64,000 nt of DNA from a virus. Its lineage: Duplodnaviria; Caudoviricetes. Positions 2 through 55,348 of this stretch are shown here, piece after piece. Under the pieces are notes generated by a model that saw nothing but the letters and a program-made list of their open reading frames with translations, had not been told where the DNA came from and ran no database searches. A program made the position numbers and the translations under genes. Within the stretch, counting starts at the first letter, position 1. Each line of letters starts with the position of its first letter. The DNA lies in IMG/VR virus record IMGVR_UViG_3300029319_000020, positions 1 through 64,000 of that record; one strand, written 5' to 3'.

Positions 2-364
2 ACCGGTGGAGGAGATGTCGGCGGCGACCAAGGGGGTGACACTGATCTGCTCGCCGAACCCTCTGCGAATAGAGACGATACACCTTCGTATGTTGATGTT
101 CCATCTAAACGTGGTCCATACAAAAGACATCAATCTTCCTATGATAAAGGCGGCATGAAAAAATCTATGCTTGGATCAACAGGGATTGAAACAGCAAGAT
201 CTACAGGTCGTAATATTTATAAGGGCTATATAGGAAACGAATATTCACTATCTCAAGCAGCCGGTGGTTATTTAGAAGAAGAGCAAAAACTAGAAACTGT
301 ATCTCGCGAAGTTGAGATACTTATTGAATCATTAAATAAAAAGGAACCAATCGATGAAACATAA
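2..364 (+). CDS. C-terminal end of a gene truncated by the window edge, probably the portal protein (gp20-like) with a Gly/Asp-rich tail
   Basis: The frame is open from base 2 (TGGGDVGGDQGGDTDLL...) into the 155..364 ORF. The portal call rests only on position upstream of the prohead protease cluster. Confidence 0.4.
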   Translation, partial: TGGGDVGGDQGGDTDLLAEPSANRDDTPSYVDVPSKRGPYKRHQSSYDKGGMKKSMLGSTGIETARSTGRNIYKGYIGNEYSLSQAAGGYLEEEQKLETVSREVEILIESLNKKEPIDET

Positions 365-1148
365 TAAGAAAAGAAATACCGCTTTTCTTTACGAGTGCCT
401 AATCAAAGAAATGACAAAGGCTGTTGTAAGAGGAGAGCTTCAAAAGAAACAACAAATTGTTGAGACACTTAAAAGATACTTCTCAAAAGGAAAACCTCTA
501 TATAACGATCTTCAATTGTATAAACAACTAATGGAACCCCAAAGATTAGAAGAATCTATTGGGCTTCGTTATATGAAAGAAGTGAAAGGGGACTGGGAAA
601 ACCTTGACAGAAAAGAAATATTTAATGAGCAAACCAATCTAATCAAAGAGTTTAATCAGAATCTTCCAGAGGCATTTGGTAACTTTATTCCTAACTATAA
701 ATCAATTGCAACAGTTGGCCAGTATTTTAATTCTAGTGGCCTTAAAGCAAAGACCCGTCTATTGATAGAAGAAAGAATCAAAACGCTTGTTATTTCGCAT
801 CCTCAAGCGATTAAAGAGGATAATTTAAAGACAGTTGATGCACTTACATATAAAACATTTGTTTCTAAATTTAATGACACATACAAAGAAACTCTTTTAA
901 AAGAACAAAGAGAGTTATTGACCAACTTTATAACGTCATTTTCTGATAATGGGCTAGGTCTTAAAATGTTTATGAATGAAGAGATTGGAAGATTAAAAGA
1001 GCAATGTGATCATCTTAGTAAAGGAGAGTGGTCAGACAAAATCAAACTAGTTAGAGAAAAACTTGAAAACTATAAAAACAAACCTTTAACAGAAGAAGTT
1101 GTCAAAGATGTGTTTCATATTCAACAACTATTATCGGAGATCAAATAA
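354..1148 (+). CDS. Hypothetical protein of the head-assembly cluster (helical, charged)
   Basis: 264-aa ORF overlapping the upstream stop, with an AAGGA SD; no recognised domain. Confidence 0.6.
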   Translation: MKHNKKRNTAFLYECLIKEMTKAVVRGELQKKQQIVETLKRYFSKGKPLYNDLQLYKQLMEPQRLEESIGLRYMKEVKGDWENLDRKEIFNEQTNLIKEFNQNLPEAFGNFIPNYKSIATVGQYFNSSGLKAKTRLLIEERIKTLVISHPQAIKEDNLKTVDALTYKTFVSKFNDTYKETLLKEQRELLTNFITSFSDNGLGLKMFMNEEIGRLKEQCDHLSKGEWSDKIKLVREKLENYKNKPLTEEVVKDVFHIQQLLSEIK

Positions 1149-2236: not shown

Positions 2237-2869
2237 ATGAGTAAACAATTATTAACAGAATTTTTTGAACTATGTCCCGATGGACGTTGTCTTGATCGCT
2301 TAAGCGAAGCTCAAAAGCGTGAGGTAATCCAAGAGGGAGCCGTTTATCTTGTTGGTCGTATTCAGACTGCTGATAAGAAGAATGGTAATGGACGTGTTTA
2401 TCCAATGAAGGTTCTCAAAAAAGAAGTAGACAATTATAAAAAGATTGTTGCTGATGGAAGAGCCACAGGTGAACTAGATCACCCTGACGATTCTGTTATA
2501 AACCTTAAGAACGTATCTCATATGATCACAGATTGCTGGTGGGAAGGTAAGGATGTTATGGGTAAAATCAAAGTTCTTGATACACCTTCAGGTCGTATTC
2601 TTAAAGATTTAATAAATGCTGGTGTAAAACTTGGTATTTCTTCTCGTGGACTTGGATCTGTTAAAGAATCAATGCATGGAGATACTGTGGTAGAAGAAGA
2701 CTTTCAACTTATTTGTTTTGATATTGTTGCAGAACCTTCTACACCAAATGCTTATGTTTATCCCAAAAGCAATCAATCAGGAGTAAACAGAGGAGCTATG
2801 AAGTTTAAAATTGCTGAAGGCAAAGAAAACAACATTGATCAACTATTTAATAAAATATTAAAGGAATAA
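2237..2869 (+). CDS. gp21: Prohead core protease (T4 gp21-like)
   Basis: Motifs NGNGRVYP, GELDHPD and LGISSRGLGS (catalytic His/Ser), FDIVAEPS. Confidence 0.95.
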   Translation: MSKQLLTEFFELCPDGRCLDRLSEAQKREVIQEGAVYLVGRIQTADKKNGNGRVYPMKVLKKEVDNYKKIVADGRATGELDHPDDSVINLKNVSHMITDCWWEGKDVMGKIKVLDTPSGRILKDLINAGVKLGISSRGLGSVKESMHGDTVVEEDFQLICFDIVAEPSTPNAYVYPKSNQSGVNRGAMKFKIAEGKENNIDQLFNKILKE

Positions 2870-2873
2870 AAAA

Positions 2874-3839
2874 ATGTATTCAAGTTATAAAAAAGATAAA
2901 AAATTATTTGAAAATTGGAGAAGGTATATAAAAGAAGAGCAAGAGAAAGATAACCTTACAGATTTCTTAAATCTTCCACTAGCTAGTTTTGTTCAAAAAA
3001 TGAATAGTATGCAAAAAGAAACACTAAGTAGTATCTTTTCTGGCTTAAAAGATGGAGCAGCTGAAGATGATTCAGTTACTATAACAGAAACCACTGTTAA
3101 AGCCAGTGTTCTTAGACCTACACAAAGTGAAGTTGTTTTTGGAAAATCAATACCATTTGCTTTACAAAGACCAGAAATGTTTATGCAATACTATTCTAGT
3201 AATGGACCTTTTAAAGTAGGACCACCAAATAACAACGCTATTGTTACATTTAAAGGCAAGTTTATTTTAGACGGACACCATCGTTGGTCTTCTTTGTATT
3301 GCGTAAATCCAGATGCTTCTTTGGCCACGTTCGATATATCTGCTCCTGTATCTCCTTTAACAGCTTTAAAACTAATGCAAGCTTCAATAAAACATTATAT
3401 TGGAGCAAAAAAAATACCTTCTAATAAAGGTGGTGGTATTAATCTATTCACTATTAATCAAGACACTCTTTTTGCAGAGGTAGAGAATTATATGACCCCC
3501 GAACTAGCTCAAAAGTATATGGAGTTAGGGTTAATGGATGCTTTAAAAGAAGATATAGAAACTGGTAGAGAACAAAGAAGAATTAGAAACCCTGATCGTG
3601 AACAAACAGGAATGATTACATCTGTTACACAAACTTTGCAGGGTATATATCTTGAAAATGTAAACAGAATGCAGTCTAAAAACAAACCAGTAAAAGGAGC
3701 AACACCAAGGCCACCAATGCCTCAAACAGACAAACCTGCTGGTTCTAGAGTAAAAGCTGGTGGTGGAACACCCGCAGCATTGGAACCTCTAGAGCAAGGA
3801 GTGATTGACTTTAGATCACCTTTTAACAAAGATCAATAA
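2874..3839 (+). CDS. Hypothetical protein with a ParB/sulfiredoxin-like core
   Basis: FILDGHHRW motif, PTQSEV upstream; N-terminal LFENWRRYIKEE leader. Confidence 0.55.
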   Translation: MYSSYKKDKKLFENWRRYIKEEQEKDNLTDFLNLPLASFVQKMNSMQKETLSSIFSGLKDGAAEDDSVTITETTVKASVLRPTQSEVVFGKSIPFALQRPEMFMQYYSSNGPFKVGPPNNNAIVTFKGKFILDGHHRWSSLYCVNPDASLATFDISAPVSPLTALKLMQASIKHYIGAKKIPSNKGGGINLFTINQDTLFAEVENYMTPELAQKYMELGLMDALKEDIETGREQRRIRNPDREQTGMITSVTQTLQGIYLENVNRMQSKNKPVKGATPRPPMPQTDKPAGSRVKAGGGTPAALEPLEQGVIDFRSPFNKDQ

Positions 3840-3850
3840 GCGGAGTAATA

Positions 3851-4270
3851 ATGAACAAAACAGAATTAAAAAAAATTTTAAAACCATTAATAAAAGAGTG
3901 TATCAAAGAAGTAATATTCGAAGATGGCACTCTTTCATCAATTATAAGCGAAGTTGTTCGAGGAGTTGGAGAACCTATTGTCGAAACTAAACAAAGGTTC
4001 CCAAAAAAACAACAACCTCAATATGAAACTGATGAACAAGCAAAAGCAAGATTAGCCAAGAAAAGAAAAAAAATGATGGACGCTATTGGCAAAGATGCAT
4101 ATAATGGTATCAATCTTTTTGAAGGAACAACTCCTGCTCCTGCTTCACAAGAATCAGGTCGAGGTGCTTTATCTGATGTTGATCCAAGAGACCCTGGAGT
4201 TGACATCTCGTCGTTTATGGGCAAATCTTCATTAATATGGCAAAAAATGGCAGGTAAAGATGGCAAATAA
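3851..4270 (+). CDS. Hypothetical protein with an amphipathic N-terminal leader
   Basis: GGAG SD; MNKTELKKILKPLIKECIKEVIFE. Confidence 0.6.
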   Translation: MNKTELKKILKPLIKECIKEVIFEDGTLSSIISEVVRGVGEPIVETKQRFPKKQQPQYETDEQAKARLAKKRKKMMDAIGKDAYNGINLFEGTTPAPASQESGRGALSDVDPRDPGVDISSFMGKSSLIWQKMAGKDGK

Positions 4271-12823: not shown

Positions 12824-13870
12824 ATGTCATCTATGTTAGAACAAGCCATTGTTGATGCTAAGGCTTTAAAAGAAGCAGCACTAAAAAATGCTGAACAAGC
12901 TGTTATAGATAAGTATTCCTCTGAGATCAAAGCTGCTGTTGAAGAATTGCTTGAGGGAAACGAACCACAGCAAACTATTAACGAAGAAATGGATGTTCCT
13001 TTTGCTTCTGATCCTTCACTGACAGATGACAAACCTGTTGAAATGGAAATGGAATTTGAATTTAATCCTGAAGATTTTCGTCTTGATCTAGAGTCTATCA
13101 AAGCACAAGCAGAGGCTGATCCTGAAAGTGGTGGAGAAAAGCCACAAGATACTGAATCTCTTGCAGCTGATATAGGTGCAGATGCACCAGCTGAAGAAGC
13201 TCCAGCCGCAGACGCAGGTGGTCTTGAAGATCTTTTACAAGAAGGTGATGAAGAAGATGATGATCTTTTAAACGAACTTCTTAGTCTTTTAGAACAAGAA
13301 GATGAAGAAGAACTACTAGATGAATCTCTCATTGTTGATGTAGAAGAAGTTAAGCATGGTCATTTTGTCACAGATAATGCTACTAGACAATACGATGCTG
13401 AAAAAGAATTAGCCCATCAACAATCAACTCATTTTAAAGAAAAAGCTGATGAGTTAGAAAAAGAAGTCGGAGAATTAAAAAACTCTGTTCTTATGTATCA
13501 AGACAAGCAAGAAAAGTTAAGATCTGTGCTTGATGACATGAAAGGTAAGTTAGAAGAAATGGTTACACAAAATGCTAGACTTTTGTATAGCAATAAAGTT
13601 TTACGCGATTCCTCCTTGAATGAGCGACAAAAAGATAAAATTGTCGAAGCAATCGCTAAGGCAGAGACTTTGAAAGAAGCAAAAACTCTTTATCAAACTC
13701 TTAAAGAAACTACAGTGGGAACACCTAAAGAGCGTGGTCCAAAATCACTTAGTGAGTCAGTACAGAGAAAACAAATTCTTTCCGCACATCTGCCACGACG
13801 CAAGCAAGAAAACATATCTGAGTCGCATGATTTTGCTTCTCGTATGAGAAAACTTGCTGGCATAGACTAA
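12824..13870 (+). CDS. Prohead core scaffold protein (gp22-like)
   Basis: Very acidic coiled coil directly upstream of the major capsid gene; C-terminal FASRMRKLAGI. Confidence 0.8.
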   Translation: MSSMLEQAIVDAKALKEAALKNAEQAVIDKYSSEIKAAVEELLEGNEPQQTINEEMDVPFASDPSLTDDKPVEMEMEFEFNPEDFRLDLESIKAQAEADPESGGEKPQDTESLAADIGADAPAEEAPAADAGGLEDLLQEGDEEDDDLLNELLSLLEQEDEEELLDESLIVDVEEVKHGHFVTDNATRQYDAEKELAHQQSTHFKEKADELEKEVGELKNSVLMYQDKQEKLRSVLDDMKGKLEEMVTQNARLLYSNKVLRDSSLNERQKDKIVEAIAKAETLKEAKTLYQTLKETTVGTPKERGPKSLSESVQRKQILSAHLPRRKQENISESHDFASRMRKLAGID

Positions 13871-13889: not shown

Positions 13890-15734
13890 ATGTCTATTAT
13901 ACAAACTCTTTCAGAGGGCATTGTCAATCGTGACTTGAAAAAAGAAGGTGCAGCTCTTCTCAATAAATGGGAAGCTACTGGTCTTCTTGAAGGTTTAGAT
14001 ACCGAACAATCTCGTCACAACATGGCTCGTCTTTTGGAAAACCAAGCCAAAGAACTTTTACGCGAGAGTTCTTCTATGAGTGCTGGTGATGTCGAAGGTT
14101 TTGCTTCTGTAGCGTTTCCTATCGTTCGTCGCGTATTTGCAGGTTTGATTGCTAACGAATTGGTTTCGGTTCAACCGATGTCTCTTCCAAGTGGTCTTAT
14201 CTTCTTCCTTGATTTTGTTTATTCACCAAACATTGGTGATGCTGGGTCTCAAGCTAATCGTTTGGGTAATGCACCAGAAAAATCAATCTATGGAACAAAT
14301 CAAGTTGCATCGCAAATTACAGGTGGTGTTGATCTTGTAGGTTCACAAAAAGAAAATATTGGTGGACTTCGTCAACAAGTTGGTTATTCTTATGCTCATC
14401 CAACAGGATCTTCTTCTGTTATTGCTAACAGTGATACAGCAGAAGGTGCTTTTCGTTCTATATTTAAGCTTGATGGTACTGTTTCTGAAACAAGAGCTAA
14501 ATATATTCAATATGACCCTGATCTTCTAGCTTCTGTTAATGATGGTTTAGGTGTTGTTATCTTGGATGTTGCTGATGATCTTTTTGATAGTATTGATTAC
14601 AACTTATTATCTTCTATTTCTTTTTCAGGATCTGCTTGTCCTACAAATCTTTTGGAAGCTCTTGGTAACAATGGTAATATTACACAACCTGGTGCAGAAT
14701 CTGAAGTTAAGCTTATTCGTCGTTTAACAACACGCGTTAAAGCTGCTGATGCTGCAACTTCAGTAGATGCTGTTCGATTTGTATTTACAATCGCTGATAG
14801 TTCAGATATTTCAGCTGAATCTGATGCTGCAACTGCTATCGCTTCGGCTGATATCGCAGCTGGTGCTTTCCAGTATCCTAAAAAAGATGCAATCACATCT
14901 TCATCAGGAAAACTTGGTGCAATTGACAGTTTTACATTCCCATTTGAAGGAAGTGAAGCGATGCCAGAAATCGATATCAAGGTAGATTCAATCGCAATTA
15001 CAGCAACAACCAAAAAGTTAAAAGCTAAGTGGACTCCAGAATTGGGTCAAGATCTTAATGCTTATCACAACTTGGATGCTGAAGTTGAATTGACATCTAT
15101 TCTTTCAGAACAAATTGCTTTGGAAATCGATCGTGAATTACTTGGCGAACTTGTTAATGGCGCAACTGCTGCAACATACTACTGGTCTCGTTCACCTGGT
15201 CTTTTTGTAAATAAAGTGACTGGTCAAGAACTTGGTGCTTCTTCTGCTGCTCCTGACTTTACAGGAACTGTTTCAGAATGGTATGAAACTCTTATTGAAA
15301 CCATCAATGACGTTTCTGCACAGATCCACTTGAAGACACTTCGTGGTGGTGCTAACTACATTGTTTGTGGTCCTGAAGTTGCTAACATTCTTGAGTTCAC
15401 CTCTGGATTCCGTGCTAACGTTACAGCTGATGCTGACAAAGGTCAAATCGGAGCCGTTAAGGTTGGTGCACTTTCTCGTAAGTTTGATGTAATCGTTGAT
15501 CCTTACTTCCCAAGAAATGCTATTCTTGTTGGACGTAAAGGTGGTTCTTTCTTAGAATCAGGATACGTTTATGCTCCTTACGTTCCACTACAAACAACAC
15601 CTACAATCTTCGGTGTCGAAGACTTTGTGCCACGTAAAGGCGTAATGACTCGATACGGTAAGAAGATGGTTCGTCCTGATATGTACGGTCTTGTAATTTG
15701 TCGTGGTCTTTTAGGTGAAGAAGGTTCTTCCTAA
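13890..15734 (+). CDS. gp23: Major capsid protein (T4 gp23-like)
   Basis: AFPIVRRVF, ELVSVQPMSLPSGLIFFLDF, KKLKAKWTPELGQDLNAYHNLDAEVEL, YAPYVPLQ, F.PRKGVMTRYG. Confidence 0.97.
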   Translation: MSIIQTLSEGIVNRDLKKEGAALLNKWEATGLLEGLDTEQSRHNMARLLENQAKELLRESSSMSAGDVEGFASVAFPIVRRVFAGLIANELVSVQPMSLPSGLIFFLDFVYSPNIGDAGSQANRLGNAPEKSIYGTNQVASQITGGVDLVGSQKENIGGLRQQVGYSYAHPTGSSSVIANSDTAEGAFRSIFKLDGTVSETRAKYIQYDPDLLASVNDGLGVVILDVADDLFDSIDYNLLSSISFSGSACPTNLLEALGNNGNITQPGAESEVKLIRRLTTRVKAADAATSVDAVRFVFTIADSSDISAESDAATAIASADIAAGAFQYPKKDAITSSSGKLGAIDSFTFPFEGSEAMPEIDIKVDSIAITATTKKLKAKWTPELGQDLNAYHNLDAEVELTSILSEQIALEIDRELLGELVNGATAATYYWSRSPGLFVNKVTGQELGASSAAPDFTGTVSEWYETLIETINDVSAQIHLKTLRGGANYIVCGPEVANILEFTSGFRANVTADADKGQIGAVKVGALSRKFDVIVDPYFPRNAILVGRKGGSFLESGYVYAPYVPLQTTPTIFGVEDFVPRKGVMTRYGKKMVRPDMYGLVICRGLLGEEGSS

Positions 15735-15801: not shown

Positions 15802-15825
15802 AAAAACTATTTACTACGACTTGAA

Positions 15826-45208: not shown

Positions 45209-45243
45209 AAAAACCCTGTGACTAATTATCATAGGGTTTTTTT
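45209..45243 (+). terminator. Terminator hairpin whose loop carries the ACTAATTA motif
   Basis: AAAAACCCTGTGA-ctaatta-TCATAGGGTTTTT. Confidence 0.65.
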
Positions 45244-45258
45244 ATTAGGAGAAATAAC

Positions 45259-45801
45259 ATGAAGATCACAAACCAAGAATTAAAACAAATTATAAAAGAA
45301 GAATTAGATAAAGTTCTTGAAGAATATTATTCTTTACCACAATCATATGATAAAGTAAGTAATCAAGCTTTTTATGATAGAAGAGACAATGTTAGAGATG
45401 CAAAAGGTCCTCAAACTTATAAAGGACTAGAAGGTGGATCTATAGGCAGTATTGAACAAGATCCAAACATTCCACCTGAGCATAAAGAAAAATTAATCAG
45501 ATTATTTAAACAAGGCCCAGAAGGTAGAAGACAAGCTTTAGAATTAATGGACGCGATGGGCTATGGTGTTGAACCAATTCTTGACACCGAAGAAGGACCT
45601 TTTGAAAAAATAAGAAATCCTTTTTCTGGAGATGATCATCCAACCACACACCATCCCGAAATGATGGGTTATGGATATAATAAGTATAAAAAAGCACCAC
45701 ACTATATGAGAGGTGGTGGTACTTTTACTTACGATGAGAATGACCCTAATCAATATGGAAACATAGATAAACTAATGAAACATTATGAGAAGAAAAAGTG
45801 A
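45259..45801 (+). CDS. Hypothetical protein with an MKIT..LKQIIKEE leader
   Basis: AGGAG SD; leader shared with 45798, 46664 and 54842. Confidence 0.7.
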   Translation: MKITNQELKQIIKEELDKVLEEYYSLPQSYDKVSNQAFYDRRDNVRDAKGPQTYKGLEGGSIGSIEQDPNIPPEHKEKLIRLFKQGPEGRRQALELMDAMGYGVEPILDTEEGPFEKIRNPFSGDDHPTTHHPEMMGYGYNKYKKAPHYMRGGGTFTYDENDPNQYGNIDKLMKHYEKKK

Positions 45802-46277
45802 AACTTACAAAGAAAAAATTAGAAAAATTGATAACTGAAGAATATGTGAGAAGGATTGGTGATGAATATAAACCAACTAACTATCCTGAATACGCTGATA
45901 AACTAACTACACTAGCAAAAGATGATTATAATCAAGCCAGAGAGTTAGCAGATGCTATAGATGAACCTTTGAATATTGAACTAGATTCAGGTGATTTTAT
46001 GGAATTTTTACCATTTGGAATCGAACAATTTAAACAAACCAGCCCTGTCACTGTTGCCGCAAAAAACTTGGGGACACTATTAGATCAAGGTAAAGTTGAG
46101 ATTTATTTTAGTACACACCATTCTAAATGGATAGTGGCTTATTATAAACAAAGACCCGATGGTCGTTATAGATACGTTGGAAGACATTCAAAAGACTATC
46201 CTAAATATGAATTTGAAAAAGCAGTCCAACATTACAATGCCCTTGCAGATAACAAATATATTCATAAATCTACTTGA
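45798..46277 (+). CDS. Hypothetical protein with an MKLT leader; paralog of 54842
   Basis: GTG start; first ~63 aa closely match 54842..55348. Confidence 0.7.
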   Translation: MKLTKKKLEKLITEEYVRRIGDEYKPTNYPEYADKLTTLAKDDYNQARELADAIDEPLNIELDSGDFMEFLPFGIEQFKQTSPVTVAAKNLGTLLDQGKVEIYFSTHHSKWIVAYYKQRPDGRYRYVGRHSKDYPKYEFEKAVQHYNALADNKYIHKST

Positions 46278-46302
46278 CAAACAATAGATAATGTGTTATA
46301 CT
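46274..46302 (+). promoter_or_regulatory. Sigma70-type promoter (GroES-like gene)
   Basis: TTGACA-17-TATACT. Confidence 0.8.
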
Positions 46303-46389
46303 ATATATATGCTGTTCGACTTATGGTGTTGAATAGAACTTGTGGCAACTTCTTCTTTGCGCGACAAGTTTAATTTTATTGGAGGTTGA

Positions 46390-46677
46390 ATGTTTACACA
46401 CGTTTACAATAGACACGTTCTTGTTGAGCTTGTCGATGAAGAAGAAGAAAAGCAAGAGTCGCTTATTGCCTTACCACAAGATTACAAGAGACAAGAGTCA
46501 CCATACTTAGTGGTTAAAGTTCTCGATAAAGCAGAGGACTGTAAAACCTTTGTAGAAGTATGTGATAAAGTTGTTATCGAACGTAGAATGCTAATTGAAA
46601 TAGAAATTAAAGGTGAAAAGAACTATTTAGTTTTAGAAAATTACATCTACGGGAGATTAGAAGATGAAACTGACTAA
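46390..46677 (+). CDS. GroES/Cpn10-like co-chaperonin
   Basis: NRHVLVELVDEEEEKQESLIALP (mobile-loop pattern), V.V.DKVV, GEKNYLVLENYIYG. Confidence 0.75.
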   Translation: MFTHVYNRHVLVELVDEEEEKQESLIALPQDYKRQESPYLVVKVLDKAEDCKTFVEVCDKVVIERRMLIEIEIKGEKNYLVLENYIYGRLEDETD

Positions 46678-47335
46678 AGAACTATTAAAAGAAATGATTC
46701 TTAAAGAAATGAAGAATCTTACACCTGCTCAAATAGAGCAAGAAGTTAGAAAACACATAATGCAAATAGGAGATCCAGATGGAGTTAAGAATATAGCTTT
46801 TGTAACAGCTCATGAACCACCTGAAGGTGGTAAAAACTTTGAATGGGATAACGATGAGATGCAATTTCATTTAAAATCAATGTTAAAAAGAAGAGGTTAT
46901 AAAGAGTTCTATCCAATAATTGGAAATTATGGTGGACAACTTGAAGGATCTTTAATGGTAGTTGAAAGAGATCAATCACAGTCTGAATTTCTTGATCAAA
47001 TGGTTTCAATTGGAAAACAATTTAATCAAGATGCTGTAATTGTTGGTACGAAACAAGAATCAATGCAAACAGACCCTAGTCAATCTGGGCCGGCTTACCA
47101 CATGGATTTTGAAATGATAAACTTACACCCAACAAAAACAGGTGTTCCAAATATGGATTTTAGACAACAAAGTACATATGATGAGAGAGACCAAGTTCAG
47201 TATGGACCAGCTGTGCAAAGCAGAGCAACTGATTTTTCTCAAGCAGGAAACTTTAAATTTGTTATTCCTTTCTTTTCATCAGCACCAGCAGATCAAAACA
47301 AATTTAGAGCAAATGTTAGAAACGTTGGAGAATAA
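46664..47335 (+). CDS. Hypothetical protein with an MKLT leader and a DUF3293-like core
   Basis: IAFVTAHEP...LKRRGY...GNYGG..EGSLMV...GKQFNQDAVI. Confidence 0.55.
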   Translation: MKLTKELLKEMILKEMKNLTPAQIEQEVRKHIMQIGDPDGVKNIAFVTAHEPPEGGKNFEWDNDEMQFHLKSMLKRRGYKEFYPIIGNYGGQLEGSLMVVERDQSQSEFLDQMVSIGKQFNQDAVIVGTKQESMQTDPSQSGPAYHMDFEMINLHPTKTGVPNMDFRQQSTYDERDQVQYGPAVQSRATDFSQAGNFKFVIPFFSSAPADQNKFRANVRNVGE

Positions 47336-48037
47336 ATGTCATACAATAAAACAATACCCCTTTACGATGATAATATCGGGTGTGTCTCTTATGTGGAGCA
47401 TATGGGGAGCGATCTTACTGTGGTTAATTCAGCAAGAGTCTCCTTTGGTGTGGAGAAAACTGATTTGGACGATAGAGACAGAAAGCTTATTAATTACCTT
47501 ATTAAACACAGACATACATCAACTCTCGAGCACAATGTTATTACTTTCAAGTTTGTCGTGCCTTTATTTATTCGTTCACAACATCATCGTCATAGGACTT
47601 GGTCTTATAACGAGATCAGCAGAAGATATACAGATAAAGATTTACAGTTCTATCTTCCAAACAGCTTTAGGACACAACACAAGTCAAACAGACAAGCATC
47701 AAACGCCAATGAGCTAATAAATCCAAAAGTCTATCCAAACATGTCTTCTATGAAGGCAGCAGAACTTTTAGAAGCAAAAACCTATGAGTGCTTAAACACA
47801 TTTGAAACATTACTTGATGCTGGAGTTTGCAGAGAGCAAGCAAGAATGGTTCTTCCACAAAATCTATACACAGAGTACTATGGAACAGTAAACTTAAACA
47901 ATCTCTTAAAATTCATAGACCTTAGGACACATGAAGGCGCGCAATGGGAAATACAGAAAGTTGCGGAAGCCTGTTTAGAGATCGCATCTGACTTATGGCC
48001 AGTGTCTGTAGAGTCTTATAGTAAAATTAGAAACTAA
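47336..48037 (+). CDS. thyX: Flavin-dependent thymidylate synthase
   Basis: VNSARVSF, HTSTLEH, QHHRHRTWSYNEISRRY, REQARMVLP, HEGAQWEI. Confidence 0.95.
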   Translation: MSYNKTIPLYDDNIGCVSYVEHMGSDLTVVNSARVSFGVEKTDLDDRDRKLINYLIKHRHTSTLEHNVITFKFVVPLFIRSQHHRHRTWSYNEISRRYTDKDLQFYLPNSFRTQHKSNRQASNANELINPKVYPNMSSMKAAELLEAKTYECLNTFETLLDAGVCREQARMVLPQNLYTEYYGTVNLNNLLKFIDLRTHEGAQWEIQKVAEACLEIASDLWPVSVESYSKIRN

Positions 48038-48044
48038 TTATTTC

Positions 48045-48317
48045 ATGATTCAAAGCCAACCAGTAACTAAACCTCTTTTTTCTATCGGTGATCTTGTAAA
48101 GGTAAGAGGTTTTGGTATTGTTCTGTCACCTGAAGAAGTTCAAATTGGTATAATTAGTAATGGACCATATTCATTTAAATCATTAGAATCATATCATGAA
48201 TTAGTTTATTTTGAATGGTGGTGTTATGATATAATCATCGGCAGCTCACTAATTACAATGATGCCAGAAAACTTTTTATTAAGGGTAAGTGTAGATGAAA
48301 GTGAAAAAGATATTTGA
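48045..48317 (+). CDS. Small SH3/KOW-like hypothetical protein
   Basis: FSIGDLVKV...IGII; short beta-rich protein. Confidence 0.5.
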   Translation: MIQSQPVTKPLFSIGDLVKVRGFGIVLSPEEVQIGIISNGPYSFKSLESYHELVYFEWWCYDIIIGSSLITMMPENFLLRVSVDESEKDI

Positions 48318-49650
48318 ATCTTATGAAAGATTTTTAGAAGAGTTAAAAGAACTACCAGGTGATGAAGTAGACTATGTCAGGATTGGTATAGCAAAAGAAA
48401 TAGATGCAACACTTCAAAGACCTTCAAACGATCAAGAATTAAATAAGCTACTCAGAGCTAAAACTCCTGGCATAACAAAAAGGAACGCCAACTTATTACT
48501 GTATCTTTATAGAGGTGTTGATGAAAAAGGTAACTTACTTAAGAATGAAAATGTTAAAGCTGTTATCGATGAGCTTGATAAAAGGGCTGAAAGGTTTCTT
48601 GATTCTTTTGAAACTCAAGTTCATTTTTTAGTTTTTTTGAATGATGCTCCAATGCTTATGAATGAGTATATGCCACGCATGAGAGAAGTTAGTAAAACAG
48701 ATAGTCATGAATCTAAGTTCATGTTAAAAACTGCACCTGGTCATTTTGACGCATTTCAGTTTGCCAAGAAGAAACCGTTTGCCATCTTTTCAGACACAAC
48801 AGCTAACTCAGGTATGAAAGATTTTATGCACAAGCAAACACCAGAGCTTCATAATATAAACCCTCAACATCATTATTTGTTTAAGCTAGAGTTCTTGATA
48901 GAAATTGCATACGATATAGTAAAAGACAATATAGATTTTTTAGTTCCTGATAGAAATAAAATTGATATTGATATAAAGCCTCTAGTACCTCAAAGGTTTA
49001 TTGCAAATTATTTGAAAGGAATAACTGTAACTACAGATGATTACAGAAAAGAGTTACGTAAAAAACCACATCCAACTTTTGATCCAATGGTAAAAGCTCA
49101 AAGATACGCAATGAATAAATTGTTTAGATACTATTATTACGGTGATTACCTAAGAGATAGCGAAGAAAAACAAATGAAACTAATCGATGACTACATGCCA
49201 CAAATATTAGACTTAGATACAGAAAATGTACAAGCTGGTATGGTACCAAACAAAAGCTTATTACTGTCTTTGGTGTGGGAAAACTTTCCTAAAGAAAGTA
49301 AAGAAAAATACAAATTACCTTTTCTAAAGATTTTATATACAGTAAAAAACACAAAATGGATGGATTATTCTCTTAGAGATATTATAAATAAACCTGGTGT
49401 TTTAGATAGAGAGAGGGGCGACACCGAATTTCTTCCTTTAGGAAGCCCAGGAGAAACTGAGGATCATAGAAAAGAATATGCAGAAAATGAATTAAACGTT
49501 ATGATACGTATGCTAAATAATAAAGAAAACATATCTGAACGTTGGGATGAATTCAAAATTCTTTGGTCTAAACTAGCATCTGACACAAAAGAAGAATTGA
49601 CTCCAAAAATAAATGAACTCATAAAAATAATTGAAGGTGATAATGAGTGA
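48295..49650 (+). CDS. Hypothetical protein with a KKIFESYERFLEE leader
   Basis: 451-aa ORF; ACTAATTA 40 bp upstream. Confidence 0.6.
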   Translation: MKVKKIFESYERFLEELKELPGDEVDYVRIGIAKEIDATLQRPSNDQELNKLLRAKTPGITKRNANLLLYLYRGVDEKGNLLKNENVKAVIDELDKRAERFLDSFETQVHFLVFLNDAPMLMNEYMPRMREVSKTDSHESKFMLKTAPGHFDAFQFAKKKPFAIFSDTTANSGMKDFMHKQTPELHNINPQHHYLFKLEFLIEIAYDIVKDNIDFLVPDRNKIDIDIKPLVPQRFIANYLKGITVTTDDYRKELRKKPHPTFDPMVKAQRYAMNKLFRYYYYGDYLRDSEEKQMKLIDDYMPQILDLDTENVQAGMVPNKSLLLSLVWENFPKESKEKYKLPFLKILYTVKNTKWMDYSLRDIINKPGVLDRERGDTEFLPLGSPGETEDHRKEYAENELNVMIRMLNNKENISERWDEFKILWSKLASDTKEELTPKINELIKIIEGDNE

Positions 49651-50458
49651 TTTTTATTTTGATGAATTAGTGCTTGGTGGATCTCTAACTGCTTTACTGT
49701 ATGCTTACAAAAAAAACCTTCCAATACTTATTGACATAGCTCATGTTCCGTTTGTTCTTGAAGAGGTTCCGCATCATTGGAATTTATCTTTTTTAGGATT
49801 CAAGAGAGGTGGGGATCATAGAAAATCACAAGTATGGGATCGAGTATCTTTTTTATTAGCAATGTCTGGATTAGTTCTGTTCCCAAACAATATTCAATCT
49901 TTTAGAATGGAAGATGATCATATCAACATAATTGGTCTTGATAATAAACGTATGAAAGTGCACTACAAAAAACTAACAGAGTTCGATAGAGACACTAAAG
50001 AGCATCTGATGGTTTACGATTGGTTTGCAGTGTCATCAGGTTCCCGACACGATTGGGAAGTTATACCAAACCCAAAAGAAGATCTATGTCATTTACTATT
50101 ATTTCACAGATCAACAAGACCTCGTACAAGATCGGATGTAAAAGATGTTTGCGCGGTCTCTAAGGTACCTAGAAACGAGTTAAATAATCTAGAGTGGTCA
50201 GAGACCTATACACGAATTAAAACGCTTCAAATGATGAAAGAGATAGGAATAAAAGGACGTGCGAATGGTTACAATAGAAAAGGAAATACACTTCATTATG
50301 CTATAGCAATTGAGCATATGTATCGTGAAGTTTTTGAACAAGTAACTAACACAATAAATATTGAAGAGATCTTATCTTGGGAAGATAAGAAAGGAACAAA
50401 CTTATGGAATTTGACACAAAAAATGTTAATGGCTCATCTTACCACCTCGCCGGAATAG
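49643..50458 (+). CDS. Degenerate FAD/NAD-binding (Rossmann-like) protein
   Basis: DELVLGGSLTALLYAY...ILID resembles the beta-alpha-beta dinucleotide-binding motif; start refined from 49631. Confidence 0.45.
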   Translation: MSDFYFDELVLGGSLTALLYAYKKNLPILIDIAHVPFVLEEVPHHWNLSFLGFKRGGDHRKSQVWDRVSFLLAMSGLVLFPNNIQSFRMEDDHINIIGLDNKRMKVHYKKLTEFDRDTKEHLMVYDWFAVSSGSRHDWEVIPNPKEDLCHLLLFHRSTRPRTRSDVKDVCAVSKVPRNELNNLEWSETYTRIKTLQMMKEIGIKGRANGYNRKGNTLHYAIAIEHMYREVFEQVTNTINIEEILSWEDKKGTNLWNLTQKMLMAHLTTSPE

Positions 50459-51312
50459 TTCCGTGCGGAGGCCAACCTCTTGATTTTGGAATGGAGTGGC
50501 CTGATTTTATGATGCCGATAGCTCCTAATTATACAATGATTGAGGCGGCAATAATGGAATGTGCATGGGCTGGATGTGAAACGATATGGGTTTGCCTTTA
50601 TGAAGATACCGCACCCTTAGTAAGACATCGTATTGGTGACTTTGTTCAAGACCCTGTATGGGCTTGGAGAGGAATGGATCCACAACCAACAGCGAAGCAA
50701 AGAAGGATACCAATTTTTTATGTACCAGTTCACCCAAAAAACAGATTCAGAAGAGATTGTCTGGCATGGTCAGTTATTGAGGGAGCCCTGTCGGCATTTA
50801 AAGTGTCAGCAACAGTATCAAAGTGGATCTATCCAAATAAATATTGGGTTTCCTTTCCTTATGGGTATTTTAATCCAGAGTTGTTGAGAGAACACCGCCA
50901 AAAAATTTCCTCTCCAAAAAATTTCTACGTTACACACAAAGGCAAAACACCGGAACAAGGTATACACACCTCATTTTCGTTTGGTAAAGATGAGTTTGTA
51001 AGATTTCGAAGACAAATACGGAAAGGAACAGGAGCATTTACAAACGAGATTAATGAAAAAGGAATTCCAACAAAGAAGTTACCACTTGAAAAAAGATATT
51101 CAGCTCGTTGGTTTAACCTAGAGGACGTTTTTATAGATTTGGATAACACAACTGATAATTCTATGGAAGTAGATCAATTTTTCGATCTTTCTAGTTGGGA
51201 AAATTATAGAAACTATTTATCATCAGAACTTTCGTCAACAACAACAAGGCCTCCAGACTGGTTAATAAAATATAAAGAATTTGGATCAATTTCACTTGAC
51301 AGAACAGATTAG
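50404..51312 (+). CDS. Degenerate nucleotidyltransferase (GT-A, NTP_transferase-like)
   Basis: LAGIVPCGG...PDFMMPIAPNYTMIEAAIMECAWAGCETIWV resembles AIILAGG...PK.LLP....PMI...L...AG...I. Confidence 0.6.
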   Translation: MEFDTKNVNGSSYHLAGIVPCGGQPLDFGMEWPDFMMPIAPNYTMIEAAIMECAWAGCETIWVCLYEDTAPLVRHRIGDFVQDPVWAWRGMDPQPTAKQRRIPIFYVPVHPKNRFRRDCLAWSVIEGALSAFKVSATVSKWIYPNKYWVSFPYGYFNPELLREHRQKISSPKNFYVTHKGKTPEQGIHTSFSFGKDEFVRFRRQIRKGTGAFTNEINEKGIPTKKLPLEKRYSARWFNLEDVFIDLDNTTDNSMEVDQFFDLSSWENYRNYLSSELSSTTTRPPDWLIKYKEFGSISLDRTD

Positions 51313-51324
51313 GTGTGTTATAAT
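51296..51324 (+). promoter_or_regulatory. Sigma70-type promoter (J-domain gene)
   Basis: TTGACA-17-TATAAT; the -10 overlaps the first ATG, so the real start is probably 51365. Confidence 0.75.
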
Positions 51325-51934
51325 GAATACAGAAATAAAAAGAAAAAGGTATAAGAAACATATTATGGAACTAAAGTTTTTAAGATCAGAATTGGCATAT
51401 CAAGAAGAAGTTTTAGCTACGGCACATTATGACTTTGAAGCATGGCATAAGCAATGGTGTAAGGATAACAATATAGATTTGACAGAACTAAACAAAAAAC
51501 ATAAAACTCAAGTTTCAAAAATTTTATCGCAGCCAAATTTTTCAGATTTGAAAAATGATGAGCAAGGTTTAGTGCCTTTAAGTGTAGAAAAAAAAGAAGA
51601 AAAAAAGAAGTTTCATAATCTTTTTAAACAAGTTGCAAAAGCCACTCATCCAGACAAGAATGAAGGTACTACACTAGATTTTAAAGCAGCTTCAGCAGCT
51701 TATGAGTCAAGTGATTGGGCTATGTTGTTACAAGTTGCAGAACAGTATGATATATTACCTGAAGATTTATCAGAAATCATTCCAGTGATGAAAGAAGAGG
51801 CAAAAAGACTAAGATCAATGATCAAACACAACAAAACAATGTATTCTTGGAAATTTCAAGAATGTGAAACACAAGAGTGTAAAGAAAAGTTAGTAAAAGA
51901 CTTTTTAAAACAATTATTTAATTTGGAGTTATAA
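51323..51934 (+). CDS. J-domain (Hsp70 co-chaperone) protein
   Basis: LFKQVAKATHPDK...FKAASAAYE (HPD motif, helices II and III); start uncertain (51323 or 51365). Confidence 0.8.
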   Translation: MNTEIKRKRYKKHIMELKFLRSELAYQEEVLATAHYDFEAWHKQWCKDNNIDLTELNKKHKTQVSKILSQPNFSDLKNDEQGLVPLSVEKKEEKKKFHNLFKQVAKATHPDKNEGTTLDFKAASAAYESSDWAMLLQVAEQYDILPEDLSEIIPVMKEEAKRLRSMIKHNKTMYSWKFQECETQECKEKLVKDFLKQLFNLEL

Positions 51935-52860
51935 TGTTATTATTATTGTTATTATGGGCATGCGATTCGGACGTGTCAATTATAAAAAGAATAGAAGAGG
52001 AAGAAACAGGACAAGCGCTTGGTATAGGTGAACCTGGTGAGCCTGCGGCTATTGTTGGACAACCTGCTTCTGAGGTCGGATCACAGCCATCAAGTGAAGT
52101 TGGATCTGAACCAGCATATGAGCAGCAACGAACCGGAGTTACAGGTCTATCGACCATGTATCTTAGACAGATCGCTTGCCCTGCTTGTATGGGTGAGACA
52201 CAAGAGCTAACTGTAGAGTATGAACTACAAGTTCACCAACCTATATCTGATTCATGGAACTCATGGATGCTACCTGATGGAACTTGCACACAGTATTTGT
52301 ATCAAGGTGTACCATCTACACAACCAATCCAAGTTGGTCAATCTGTACAAGTTATGAACCAAAGTCATCAATTTGATGCTTATCAAAGCGGAGCAGGAAC
52401 TTATACATCACAAAACATATGGGAGTCTCACTTACAACGTAATGCAAACTATATGGTGCAAACAAGTGAGGGTTCGTTTAACTTTACAACTGTCGAGGGC
52501 TTTGACTATATAGAACCATACACAATGCTTTGGGTTGATCCGTCTTATGCTTTCGAAGCTGCCGTTCGTAGATCTGGCTTTACTGTAACATGGGCACCAG
52601 CTCGTCAAACCAGTAGAATGATGATAACTCTTGGTGTTTACTCTAGTGATGGTGCTTATTTATTAGGACAAGTCTCTTGTTTTGGAGCAGATAATGGATC
52701 TATGTTTATACCTGCTCAATATCTTAATTATCCTACATGGTCGTTGGTTGCAATTCATATAGAAAGGTTTGAAACTGATGTCGTTGAGACCAGTATTAAT
52801 AACTCTTATATGGAAACTTTACAAATTTGGGAAGTTGTGGGCACTGGACACATCGAGTAA
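51934..52860 (+). CDS. Predicted lipoprotein
   Basis: MLLLLLLWA-C lipobox-like signal, Pro/Ser/Gly linker, then a beta-rich domain with Cys pairs. Confidence 0.65.
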   Translation: MLLLLLLWACDSDVSIIKRIEEEETGQALGIGEPGEPAAIVGQPASEVGSQPSSEVGSEPAYEQQRTGVTGLSTMYLRQIACPACMGETQELTVEYELQVHQPISDSWNSWMLPDGTCTQYLYQGVPSTQPIQVGQSVQVMNQSHQFDAYQSGAGTYTSQNIWESHLQRNANYMVQTSEGSFNFTTVEGFDYIEPYTMLWVDPSYAFEAAVRRSGFTVTWAPARQTSRMMITLGVYSSDGAYLLGQVSCFGADNGSMFIPAQYLNYPTWSLVAIHIERFETDVVETSINNSYMETLQIWEVVGTGHIE

Positions 52861-52894
52861 CTATTTATTATCCAGACTAGGGAGGAAATATGTC

Positions 52895-53218
52895 ATGGAA
52901 AAATCTAAAATTGCGGATTATGCGTGGAAAGGCTTTACTATATGTTTATCTATCATTATTGTGCCTTGTTTTGTATGGATATGGGATTCAGAAATGAGAC
53001 TTGGAGCCTTAGAGTATAAAATGGATGATGCTAATAAAAATCTTGAAAAGATTATTGCACACATGGATAGTCAAAATGGAACAGATGCGATAGATCGCCA
53101 AGTTCAATTTAAACTAATGGAAGAGAGACTTGAACAACTTGAGAAAAATCAAGAAAGATTAGAAGAAGAAGTTCTTCATTATGCCAAAAAATTTGTTGAA
53201 AAAGGAGACAGAAGATGA
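52895..53218 (+). CDS. Single-pass membrane / coiled-coil protein
   Basis: GGGAGG SD; TM FTICLSIIIVPCFVWIW, then coiled coil; preceded by ACTATTTA; start refined from 52769. Confidence 0.6.
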   Translation: MEKSKIADYAWKGFTICLSIIIVPCFVWIWDSEMRLGALEYKMDDANKNLEKIIAHMDSQNGTDAIDRQVQFKLMEERLEQLEKNQERLEEEVLHYAKKFVEKGDRR

Positions 53219-53268
53219 AAAATTGTAATTGTTGTAAAGATTGTTGCTCATGTGAATGTTGTGACTAG
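53215..53268 (+). CDS. 17-aa Cys-rich microprotein MKNCNCCKDCCSCECCD, not in the ORF track
   Basis: AAAGGAGA SD, ATGA coupling to the upstream stop, 8 Cys in 17 residues. Confidence 0.55.
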   Translation: MKNCNCCKDCCSCECCD

Positions 53269-53701
53269 TGATAGATGTCCATTTTGTAACTGTGATCCGT
53301 GTGATTGCGATTGGGGGTTAAATGAATTGTTTAAAAAAGGGAACGTTATTGCTAGTAAATCCTTGGTTAAAGGATCACTTAGCGGTAGTTATTACCCCAC
53401 CATCGAAGATCTCAGACTACCAACTTTTGACAGTATTTATAATACGTTGGGGACAGGTGGAGCAAGTGCACATAAGCAACGTTATAAGAGTGTTATCATA
53501 GATAAATCAATATATAAAGTTGGAGATTTGGTCAATTGGCACCCTTTTTGGGGAATAGCTGATTGGAATAAGCCTTGGATTATTAAAGAGGTTTATTCGC
53601 ACGATCCTTTAGACTGTGCGTTTTATGATTATGAAATTACCGATGGACTATCAGTCCATAAGGTAACTTTTAGTGAAATAAAAAAATTGGGGGATAAATG
53701 A
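53252..53701 (+). CDS. Hypothetical protein (Cys-rich N-terminus, SH3-like C-terminus); may be a chance fusion
   Basis: CPFCNCDPCDCDWG at the N-terminus, YKVGDLV at the C-terminus; overlapped by an alternative-frame ORF. Confidence 0.45.
   Translation: MNVVTSDRCPFCNCDPCDCDWGLNELFKKGNVIASKSLVKGSLSGSYYPTIEDLRLPTFDSIYNTLGTGGASAHKQRYKSVIIDKSIYKVGDLVNWHPFWGIADWNKPWIIKEVYSHDPLDCAFYDYEITDGLSVHKVTFSEIKKLGDK
53322..53501 (+). CDS. 59-aa SH3/KOW-like ORF nested out of frame inside 53252..53701
   Basis: GGGGG SD-like run; MNCLKKGTLLLVNPWLKDHLAVVI...GQVEQVHISNVIRVLS. Confidence 0.45.
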   Translation: MNCLKKGTLLLVNPWLKDHLAVVITPPSKISDYQLLTVFIIRWGQVEQVHISNVIRVLS

Positions 53702-54084
53702 AAAAGTACAAAAATGATTGGGTGTGGAACGAAAAGATGTGCCACCATCTTGATAAAAGTTATGAATTAGAGTGTATAAGCTTATATAGGAACTGTTACG
53801 ACTATTCACCAGAACACTTTTATGATGATATTATGGTGTTTGTGACCAAAGCATTTATTGACAGAAATAGACAGTTGGGCATGGATAACAGAAGATGCAT
53901 CGTTCAAGTTAAAATGAAATTCGGTTTTCTAACTATTTACTATGATGGGGGAAACGACCCTTATCTTGATGAAATAATCAACACTGCTACCAAAATGGCT
54001 CAACAAGTCAAAAAGAAAATTGACGAGCAATATGGTAGAGGAGGGTGGAGACATCGAAAAATACTTTACTCAAATAAGAATTGA
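53698..54084 (+). CDS. Hypothetical protein
   Basis: IVQVKMKFGFLTIYY, a motif type common in small phage proteins. Confidence 0.6.
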   Translation: MKKYKNDWVWNEKMCHHLDKSYELECISLYRNCYDYSPEHFYDDIMVFVTKAFIDRNRQLGMDNRRCIVQVKMKFGFLTIYYDGGNDPYLDEIINTATKMAQQVKKKIDEQYGRGGWRHRKILYSNKN

Positions 54085-54358
54085 TGAATTACCAAAAGGA
54101 AGAAAACCAAAATTTCAAATTGGTAATTTAGTAAGAATTGTCTTTCGATCAGATGATGGACCAGCTTCATATCAAATAAAAGACAATCTTGGACTTGTTT
54201 GTGAAGTTCTCTACTATGAATGTACTAACTACGATTGGCAACAAATGGATGAAAGAGATCCTTTTTATATTATAGAATACAAACTGTTACCACCAGGTAG
54301 AGATAAAGAGTATCGATATGTTTCCGAACAAAATTTAAGGAAGGTCGAAGATGTTTAG
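54020..54358 (+). CDS. SH3/KOW-like hypothetical protein
   Basis: PKFQIGNLVRI...LGLVCEV...YVSEQNLRKV. Confidence 0.55.
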   Translation: MTSNMVEEGGDIEKYFTQIRIDELPKGRKPKFQIGNLVRIVFRSDDGPASYQIKDNLGLVCEVLYYECTNYDWQQMDERDPFYIIEYKLLPPGRDKEYRYVSEQNLRKVEDV

Positions 54359-54845
54359 TTTACTGCTATCTCTTGCATTTGCAGGTACTACTGTTTATGC
54401 TCCAATGGAAACACAACTGGAGACAACTGTGGTTCATTATTTTATTGATAAAGACTTTCATGCTAGAAAAAAAGATATGCTTGTTATTAACTGGGCTGAC
54501 TGTGAGAATATGGGGCACCGAGAGTGTGCTATGATGAAAGAGTTTTGGTATTTAGATACAGTTGTGTTTGAAGGTGAGGAATCATACCAAATCAATATTT
54601 TTCTTTATGACGAAAAATCAAGAATTGTATCTCAGTCGATTATACACAAAAGATATAAGATTGAAAAGATCCCTCAAAAAACCACAGTTAAAGGAACTAA
54701 GGTTGAGCGAGGTACAATCGCACCATTCAAGACAGAAATAGAAAAACCTCCAATTTTAATAAAAAAGAAGCCTGAAATTACAGCAAGAGAAATAGAACAA
54801 GCTGTTATTAAACTACTTATTAACATTAAGGAGTATGAAGAATGA
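54351..54845 (+). CDS. Hypothetical secreted protein
   Basis: Signal peptide MFSLLLSLAFA. Confidence 0.55.
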   Translation: MFSLLLSLAFAGTTVYAPMETQLETTVVHYFIDKDFHARKKDMLVINWADCENMGHRECAMMKEFWYLDTVVFEGEESYQINIFLYDEKSRIVSQSIIHKRYKIEKIPQKTTVKGTKVERGTIAPFKTEIEKPPILIKKKPEITAREIEQAVIKLLINIKEYEE

Positions 54846-55348
54846 AACTAACAAAACAAAAACTAGAACAATTAATAGCGGAAGAATATGTAAGAAGGGT
54901 TGCCGATGATGGAAAGCCAACTAACTATCCTGAATACGCAGATAAGCTTACTGCTTTGGCAAAATCAGACCCTTTACAAGCTAGAGAACTAGCTGATGCT
55001 TTGGGTGAGCCTTTAGATATTGAATTTGACAAAATCAGCAGCCATGTGCCAATTCCACGTTCTGATAGTGAAAAGAATGACTTCGATCTTCATATTGATT
55101 TTCTTATGGAAGATCACGTTTCATCGTTAGCAGAAGAACCAGACATGCAAGAAGCGTATGAATTCGCACAAAGAAAAGGGCTTGATCCTCAAGAAACATA
55201 CAATTCATTAATGAGAAATTATAAAAGAATAATGTTACGACATGTAAACCAACCAAAAACCGAACATGATCGAAATAAAGAATTAGAAGATCTTTATGGT
55301 CTTGATCTCCGCCCAGATTGGATGAAAAAAAGCAAACCAAAAAGATAA
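54842..55348 (+). CDS. Hypothetical protein with an MKLT leader; paralog of 45798
   Basis: Shared N-terminal ~63 aa, including 23 identical nucleotides CCAACTAACTATCCTGAATACGC. Confidence 0.7.
   Translation: MKLTKQKLEQLIAEEYVRRVADDGKPTNYPEYADKLTALAKSDPLQARELADALGEPLDIEFDKISSHVPIPRSDSEKNDFDLHIDFLMEDHVSSLAEEPDMQEAYEFAQRKGLDPQETYNSLMRNYKRIMLRHVNQPKTEHDRNKELEDLYGLDLRPDWMKKSKPKR

Follow-up and report, generated by a model that had tools for sequence, protein, structure and literature searches.

The internal proteins of bacteriophage T4 are small, basic and DNA-associated, and their capsid-targeting sequence (CTS) reads MKTYQEFIAE. Across T-even phages these proteins are diverse and only the CTS is conserved (PMC3012670, PMC9026906). 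It comprises the first 10 residues of IPIII, whose processing is governed by residues 8 and 10, and the T4 protease gp21 cleaves after L/I-x-E; with Asp in place of the Glu at the cleavage position, processing is prevented and targeting is left intact (PMC9026906). In the giant phages phiKZ, 201phi2-1 and SPN3US, propeptides of head and ejection proteins are cut after S/A-x-E by diverged homologues of gp21 (PMC9026906). Here we analyse a 64,000-nucleotide stretch of an uncultured marine far-T4 myophage (positions 1 to 64,000 of the IMG/VR record IMGVR_UViG_3300029319_000020; hereafter the window), with a GC content of about 35% and all called genes on the + strand. Four open reading frames (ORFs), here named by their first position, begin with one specific leader that co-occurs with a gp21-type protease gene and is tied to a promoter-like motif. 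With moderate confidence, we interpret this leader as a propeptide that targets late-made proteins to the prohead in the manner of the T4 CTS.

The N-termini of ORFs 45259, 45798, 46664 and 54842 follow the pattern MK[IL]T[KN]xxLxx[ILM]I and continue into I-x-E, or L-K-E in the case of 46664. We trained a 16-residue matrix solely on metagenomic homologues of 54842 from outside the window and scanned the 71 window proteins with it (19,703 positions). The four highest scores belong to 54842 (46.2), 45798 (42.3), 46664 (25.9) and 45259 (25.6), every one at residue 1; the fifth (12.7) falls at an internal position. Likewise, a hidden Markov model (HMM) built from 110 leaders matches only these four ORFs among the window proteins (E 1e-6 to 1e-14): 45259 is recovered at E 8.5e-15, and 45798 at E 4.5e-8 despite being absent from the training set. 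Given the outcome of both scans, we consider the strict leader real in four ORFs, and looser versions of it not to be members. All N-termini and motif coordinates quoted in the first-pass annotation of this DNA proved correct on re-reading. The looser leaders that it had claimed in ORFs 3851 and 24485 did not hold up: they score at background with the HMM (E 0.76 or worse), and both ORFs were rejected as carriers.

Leader protein 1 (45259..45801, + strand, 180 residues) starts with MKITNQELKQIIKEELDKVLEE, containing I-K-E14 and L-E-E22. Leader protein 2 (45798..46277, + strand, 159 residues) is initiated at a GTG codon overlapping the stop of 45259; in it the leader and a conserved 63-residue N-module precede a C-terminal body of its own. 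Leader protein 3 (46664..47335, + strand, 223 residues) starts with MKLTKELLKEMILKEM and has a body resembling S-adenosylmethionine (SAM) lyases and DUF3293. Leader protein 4 (54842..55348, + strand, 168 residues) joins the leader and the 63-residue N-module to an all-alpha C-domain of no known fold. As a sequence match, the leader ends in the motif of gp21-type proteases in all of them, with I-x-E14 in 45259, 45798 and 54842 and both L-K-E10 and L-K-E15 in 46664. The four had been described as otherwise unrelated ORFs under one leader, which is accurate for the leader itself and for 46664, as this protein has nothing else in common with the other three. In contrast, 45798 and 54842 are related, sharing 76% identity over residues 1-63 and diverging beyond, and 45259 is a distant member of their family with a diverged, expanded copy of the N-module.

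Outside the window, we found 178 metagenomic homologues of 54842, with no name and no Pfam domain among them; their N-terminus is near-invariant (MKLTKQKLEQLIxEEY) and their C-termini are variable. The family of 46664 retains MKLTKQLLKEM over a range of 44-100% identity. In these homologue families, collected without any search pattern, E14 is invariant in family A2, L8 is invariant and E10 kept in at least 90% in family A1, and residue 15 varies. A degenerate DNA pattern coding for MK-h-TK-xx-L-xx-h-I-x-E-[DE] occurs in at least 120 stretches of IMG/VR, with 181 matches in the loci listed. As an in-frame stop lies at a median of 7 codons upstream of the matches listed, we take them for true N-termini. 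Among the 171 leader proteins listed, positions left free by the pattern are conserved nonetheless (Q7 in 52%, K/R9 in 82%, Q10 in 53%, K/R13 in 84%), and position 16 is hydrophobic (L/I/V/M) in 80%. In 43% of them, a further [LI]xE has its Glu at residue 21 or 22, compared with 1-2% per position elsewhere, and past residue 23 or so the composition is flat (G, D, E, S, P). At the conserved residues all synonymous codons are used, including six leucine codons at position 8; hence it is the peptide that is under selection.

A profile of the first 30 residues retrieves 13,734 proteins at E <=0.001 from 1.84 billion representatives at 50% identity. The DNA pattern has only 25 matching stretches in prokaryote genomes (596 Gb), all in metagenome-assembled genomes; each of the three contigs with several leader copies that we checked encodes an S77 protease, for which reason we read them as mis-binned phage contigs. 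Near-complete phage genomes contain 3-19 leader genes each with one mismatch allowed, and none with the reversed pattern as a control. In one jumbo relative, about 25 leader genes follow each other consecutively, keeping I-x-E14 and leaving residue 15 free. Tandem arrays of approximately 13-25 small genes are visible in the jumbo relatives L179 (G004, 8-19 kb) and L177 (G006, 49-63 kb), where nearly all genes begin with MKIT[KR][KR]QL..I[IV].E, again with a free residue 15. An expected occurrence of MKITKSQLKQIIKEE in cultured cyanophages or pelagiphages found no support in the five cultured genomes scanned. A tblastn search with a 22-residue leader likewise gave no match, probably on account of its shortness and the low-complexity filter.

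The leader is also found inside proteins. The best profile matches contain 2-4 copies per chain (P0148, P0155, P0156 and P0205), and two-module ORFs are present in frame at the DNA level (L040:+11177, L116:+692, L122:+1218). Of 127 internal copies, 27 are devoid of methionine, excluding a role of the leader in translation initiation only; many are preceded by E-[SN]-K. Either a fusion of tandem genes or a cargo polyprotein that is cleaved at every leader may account for such chains.

The principle of internal proteins is known already from T4; for the present leader, literature searches with leader strings returned no relevant paper, and we found no published description. Like the CTS of IPI, IPII, IPIII and Alt, the leader is a short N-terminal peptide placed on diverse proteins and ending in hydrophobic-x-Glu. 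The T4 system shares further traits with the present one: a protease of the gp21 family, a gp23-type capsid, genes scattered outside the head module and hypervariable bodies. The likeness of the two peptides is one of design only (MK start, amphipathic character, I-x-E end), both being too short for a test of homology. Whereas the CTS has 10 residues, the leader has 14-22 and often two cut-type sites; a handful of genes in T4 stands against 3-19 or more per genome here, arranged in tandem arrays and in part as multi-module chains with internal leaders. Finally, internal proteins of T4 are basic and the bodies here are mostly acidic. The giant phages resemble our proposal in processing after Glu, in redundant propeptide sites and in having internal or ejected proteins in great number and variety (PMC9026906). 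No single shared leader is described for them in that work, in contrast to the near-invariant one found here on thousands of families, and the window protease is much closer to T4 gp21 (40-50% identity) than the giant-phage proteases are.

This protease, a T4 gp21-type prohead core serine protease, is encoded at 2237..2869 (+ strand; Peptidase_S77, PF03420, 116 bits against a cut-off of 27, 2e-33). Its residues 33-178 align to residues 54-203 of 5JBL (8.8e-21), and it has a histidine (ELDHP) and a serine (ISSRG) at positions that are alanine in the crystallised 5JBL chain; we take these two residues to be the catalytic pair. Of 10 leader contigs exceeding 120 kb, 9 encode S77, among them the three with a completeness of at least 90%; none of 14 control genomes does. 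S77 is also present on 21 of 40 short leader fragments, where about 8 would be expected from the summed CheckV completeness. In relatives, the protease belongs to a module of constant order: a presumed portal gene (by position), the KHNKKRNTAF protein (equivalent to 354), a protein of about 180 residues (1149), a small membrane protein (1813), a variable slot, the protease, a second variable slot, the MKKxELKKxLKPLIKECIKEVIFEDG protein (3851) and S21. Genes with the strict leader fill the variable slots flanking the protease in six relatives (L129, L130, L134, L135, L139 and L140). Adjacency to the protease as a general rule was rejected, most arrays of complete genomes lying at a distance from it.

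Several proteins of the window suggest that the L/I-x-E cutting rule of T4 has been retained. We scored [LI]xE enrichment against composition-matched shuffles in all 71 window proteins. The highest excess (z 4.8) is that of the conserved protein that follows the presumed portal gene in relatives (354..1148, + strand, KHNKKRNTAF...), likely a core protein. It is followed by a conserved small head-module protein (3851..4270, + strand, MNKTELKKILKPLIKECIKEVIFEDG, z 4.1), which is outside the strict leader family and likely a prohead core component. Rank 5 is occupied by a protein encoded ahead of the capsid gene (12824..13870, + strand, z 2.5), acidic and with a coiled coil, which we take for the scaffold by its position and composition. 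The bodies of the four window leader proteins show no [LI]xE enrichment in the same test. In the gp23-type major capsid protein (13890..15734, + strand; Pfam Gp23, 4.6e-72), a single conserved L-[RK]-E59 separates a block resembling the gp23 propeptide from one that aligns to mature gp23. The protease itself keeps LLxE at its N-terminus (L-T-E8 in the window), the counterpart of LIE-9 in T4 gp21.

A further tie of the leader genes to the structural programme lies in the DNA upstream of them. The motif ACTA[ATC]TTA occurs 21 times on the + strand of the window and twice on the - strand; for ACTAWTTA, 21 occurrences compare with 10.3 expected, and none of 100 shuffles reaches that number. It is placed 26-47 nt upstream of ten starts: 2874, 4498, 12824, 19451, 22263, 24485, 45259, 46664, 48295 and 54842. 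The units that it heads are thus those of scaffold and capsid, sheath, tube, 4498, 24485 and 2874, the three leader units (45259 with 45798; 46664; 54842) and 48295. Co-occurrence of motif and leader, anticipated by the first-pass annotation, is complete in the window: all leader transcription units have the motif that also heads the scaffold/capsid, sheath and tube operons. On the + strand, it reads ACTAATTA at 45221..45228 (38 nt upstream of 45259), ACTATTTA at 46622..46629 (42 nt upstream of 46664, within the 3' end of the Cpn10 gene) and ACTACTTA at 54812..54819 (30 nt upstream of 54842). The same strand has ACTAATTA at 48248..48255, 47 nt upstream of 48295, and ACTATTTA at 2842..2849, 32 nt upstream of 2874.

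Within the non-structural region of the window (33-64 kb), no called genes other than the three leader units and 48295 have the motif at this distance. A fifth gene (52895-53218, + strand) joins them once its start is re-read: the true N-terminus, MEKSKIADYAW as seen in relatives, begins 35 nt downstream of ACTATTTA at 52860. Its product of 107 residues combines a single membrane helix with a coiled coil and may act late, in lysis or as part of the virion. Before Cpn10 (46274), 51296 and UvdE (55359) stand sigma-70 promoters close to the consensus, with an extended -10 element. Upstream of 180 listed IMG/VR leader genes, ACTATTT is the commonest 7-mer (19 of 180), and T4's TATAAATA is not enriched. 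At 15806, 16793, 24459 and 45221, ACTAWTTA often stands directly after a terminator-like hairpin and T-run, and once inside, an adjacency which suggests paired units of terminator and late promoter.

What follows the leader is hypervariable. The bodies of 156 leader proteins listed from IMG/VR fall into 142 unrelated BLAST clusters, and no Pfam domain was found in the 20 longest of the proteins listed. In the window, Pfam and PHROGs gave nothing above noise for 45259, 45798 and 54842, and the ESM Atlas no lead for 45259. The model of 54842 has an N-module with a predicted local distance difference test (pLDDT) score below 50 and a C-domain at 80-86, and matches no known fold. Weak MazG-like matches of 54842 in Klebsiella phages by tblastn (E 6e-4 to 6e-3) were taken as chance; tblastn of 3851 returned no match.

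For 46664, a weak model makes the body appear SAM-lyase-like. The protein reaches 21.8 bits with PF23780 (S-AdoMet_lyase), below the cut-off of 28; 22 of its 27 homologues match S-AdoMet_lyase and 16 match DUF3293, all below cut-off. With an AlphaFold model of mean pLDDT only 58, the top Foldseek matches are the phage SAM lyases 6zm9, 6znb, 9lqe and 8bb1_E (E 1.9e-3 for 6zm9; template modelling score of 0.63, normalised to target, for 8bb1_E). A sequence search of 46664 for a solved SAM lyase gave no residue-level alignment. The likeness to phage SAM lyases (T3 SAMase, Svi3-3; PF23780, DUF3293) thus concerns the body only, at the level of sub-threshold Pfam and Foldseek matches, and 46664 differs from them by a supplementary C-terminal region of about 90 residues and by the N-terminal leader. 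To our knowledge, the SAM lyases described so far are early proteins, and we know of no packaging of any of them.

We propose the following pathway for the leader proteins. They would be made late from ACTAWTTA-type promoters, each with a leader of about 22 residues that is predicted to be helical and amphipathic (M-K-[IL]-T-K-x-Q-L-K-Q-I-I-K-E14-E-[LI]-x-x-[VL]-[LM]-x-E22), ahead of a disordered acidic or glycine-rich linker and an arbitrary body. Through the leader, these proteins would dock on the scaffolding core while the prohead assembles. Subsequent cleavage by the gp21-type serine protease at Glu14 (I-x-E), and in many cases also at Glu22 (L-x-E), would leave the body in the head, from where it could be delivered with the DNA. 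That this T4-CTS-like targeting and cutting is what the leader serves seems to us somewhat more probable than all else. More tentatively, some bodies might be counter-defence cargo, for instance the SAM-lyase-like one of 46664. An extended form of the proposal, which we regard as possible yet doubtful, is that in a large, uncultured marine T4-like clade the near-invariant leader of about 22 residues (MK[IL]TKxQLKQIIKEE) loads more than 13,000 fast-evolving families, enzymes and internally cut chains among them, as a first-strike counter-defence co-delivered with DNA.

The head-cargo interpretation had been put forward in the first-pass annotation; it gains from a leader that is specific at the protein level, the S77 protease, an I-x-E at residues 12-14, the shared upstream motif and the hypervariable bodies. 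Several observations weigh against it. The bodies are mostly acidic, with a median isoelectric point of 5.2 and 62% of values below 6 (5.1-6.3 for the four window bodies), and the 63 residues conserved between 45798 and 54842 go far beyond the need of a 10-14-residue tag. In complete genomes, leader genes are mostly in tandem arrays far from protease and head genes. As every T4-like phage has S77, its co-occurrence with the leader does not single it out as the partner, and its excess on short fragments may partly reflect the selection of viral contigs in IMG/VR. The cutting motif carries little information, [LI]xE being met 1.34 times per 100 residues overall. The upstream motif is a putative late promoter as judged from sequence, and the copy at 45221 has an ambiguous role, because it is located in the loop of a terminator-like hairpin (45209-45241, -15.5 kcal/mol) before a T-run. 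Lastly, no cultured carrier was found, with zero matches (one mismatch allowed) in HTVC008M, immuto, P-SSM2, Syn9 and Mel-JY01.

Some of these points would be explained if the leader were a helix for docking or oligomerisation whose partner, be it a host target or a phage factor, lies outside the capsid, and the proteins were polymorphic intracellular effectors that are neither packaged nor cut. A constant N-terminus before a variable C-terminus fits this well, as do the acidic bodies, the arrays distant from head genes and the N-module of 45798 and 54842, highly conserved yet of low pLDDT, as if it folded on a partner only. It leaves unexplained why Glu14 is invariant next to a free residue 15 and why a second [LI]xE recurs at 21/22, and also the leader genes in protease-flanking slots, the upstream motif of structural type and the internal copies at module joints; on balance we find such a helix rather unlikely. 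Alternatively, the leader might target the prohead core and be cut, its proteins acting as auxiliary scaffold or core that is degraded and expelled before DNA packaging like gp22, gp67 and gp68 of T4. T4 core proteins are cut to small pieces that exit the head (PMC9026906), and the bodies here are acidic, of low complexity and often short, with some encoded in the head-core module. Yet some look folded, such as 46664 and the C-domain of 54842; their hypervariability is unlike that of structural scaffolds, and the four window bodies are not enriched in [LI]xE, which together render an expendable core improbable.

Two further explanations dispense with the capsid altogether, and we give both very little credence. 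One short tag on thousands of unrelated proteins would suit a single modifying enzyme with many substrates, the leader being its recognition sequence as in ribosomally synthesised and post-translationally modified peptides. Against this, the surroundings of the leader genes in the window contain no enzyme of the radical-SAM or another modifying type, and none recurs beside the five arrays inspected, whose flanking ORFs were judged by visual reading rather than by Pfam search; the S77 protease is the sole partner consistently found. The A-rich 5' coding stretch and the constant 5' ends of the small genes in tandem arrays could, for their part, point to a function of the nucleic acid, be it enhancement of translation by a 5' coding element or the exchange of gene cassettes by recombination at a common joint. 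The free variation of synonymous codons, the amphipathic periodicity of the peptide and the in-frame internal copies with no start codon all speak for selection on the protein instead.

Apart from the strict leader, the first-pass annotation had noted a second flavour of it in 2874 and 48295. It does recur at N-termini in relatives; with the leader HMM it scores at background, and it is better seen as a separate, weaker motif. The protein at 2874..3839 (+ strand), with the N-terminus KKLFENWRRYIKEE, occupies the variable slot directly after the protease, which in some relatives holds strict-leader genes. The other, at 48295..49650 (+ strand, 451 residues), has the N-terminus KKIFESYERFLEE and follows the late-type motif described above. 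A regular expression based on examples such as FENWRRYIKEE and FESYERFLEE has 7 N-terminal matches and 1 internal match in 116,278 residues; this count is only suggestive and circular, as the expression was written after seeing the examples. Genes of the second flavour stand in slots of the protease module in the window and in L130, L140 and L141. Such N-termini (h-x-E-W/F-R-K/R-F/Y-h) can be seen at 234-1507 of L180, 4871-5440 of L130, 7200-8243 of L140 and 5065-5994 of L141, and the genes share arrays with strict-leader genes as well as occupying head-module slots. The second flavour may be a second address code.

Among cultured phages, the capsid proteins nearest to that of the window belong to Flavobacterium phage immuto, Microcystis phage Mel-JY01 and Rhodothermus phage RM378 (39-47% identity), and a nucleotide search of 50,697 phage records gave no match for the 11-kb region. 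Besides the tail sheath (19451-22219), the window encodes DNA polymerase III alpha, RecA, a class II ribonucleotide reductase, ThyX, UvdE, ClpS, Hsp20, adenosine deaminase, ribosomal protein S21, Cpn10 and an Hc1-like histone. The S21 gene (4260-4466, + strand; phrog_21469, 3e-14) keeps its position in the head module of relatives.

Near the leader genes, a 61-residue histone H1-like homologue of Hc1 is encoded at 45004-45189 (+ strand; PF07432, 1e-8), just before the terminator-like hairpin. Its N-terminus, MKQKLEQLIEG, looks leader-like and has no score with the leader HMM. The Cpn10/GroES-like co-chaperonin (46390-46677, + strand; PF00166, 6e-6), which presumably takes the role of gp31 in T4, overlaps the start of leader gene 46664; the sigma-70 promoter at 46274 before it matches 11 of 12 consensus positions. 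A phage-encoded ClpS N-degron adaptor (56619-56942, + strand; PF02617, 8e-31) is syntenic in the relatives L001 and L002. Residue 16 of the leader is leucine in 39% of proteins and tyrosine in 45798 and 54842. It is pure speculation that a cleavage after Glu15 would create an N-degron.

If the leader is indeed a prohead-targeting propeptide, "head-packaged, protease-processed" would become the first functional label for more than 13,000 protein families of marine phages, no annotation having been found for any of the leader families checked. These families would constitute a large pool of candidate injected anti-defence proteins, and the leader a naturally occurring address with which foreign proteins could be loaded into capsids of non-model phages. 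The internal-protein strategy of T4 would then be a major modular cargo route of ocean phages, used on a far larger scale.

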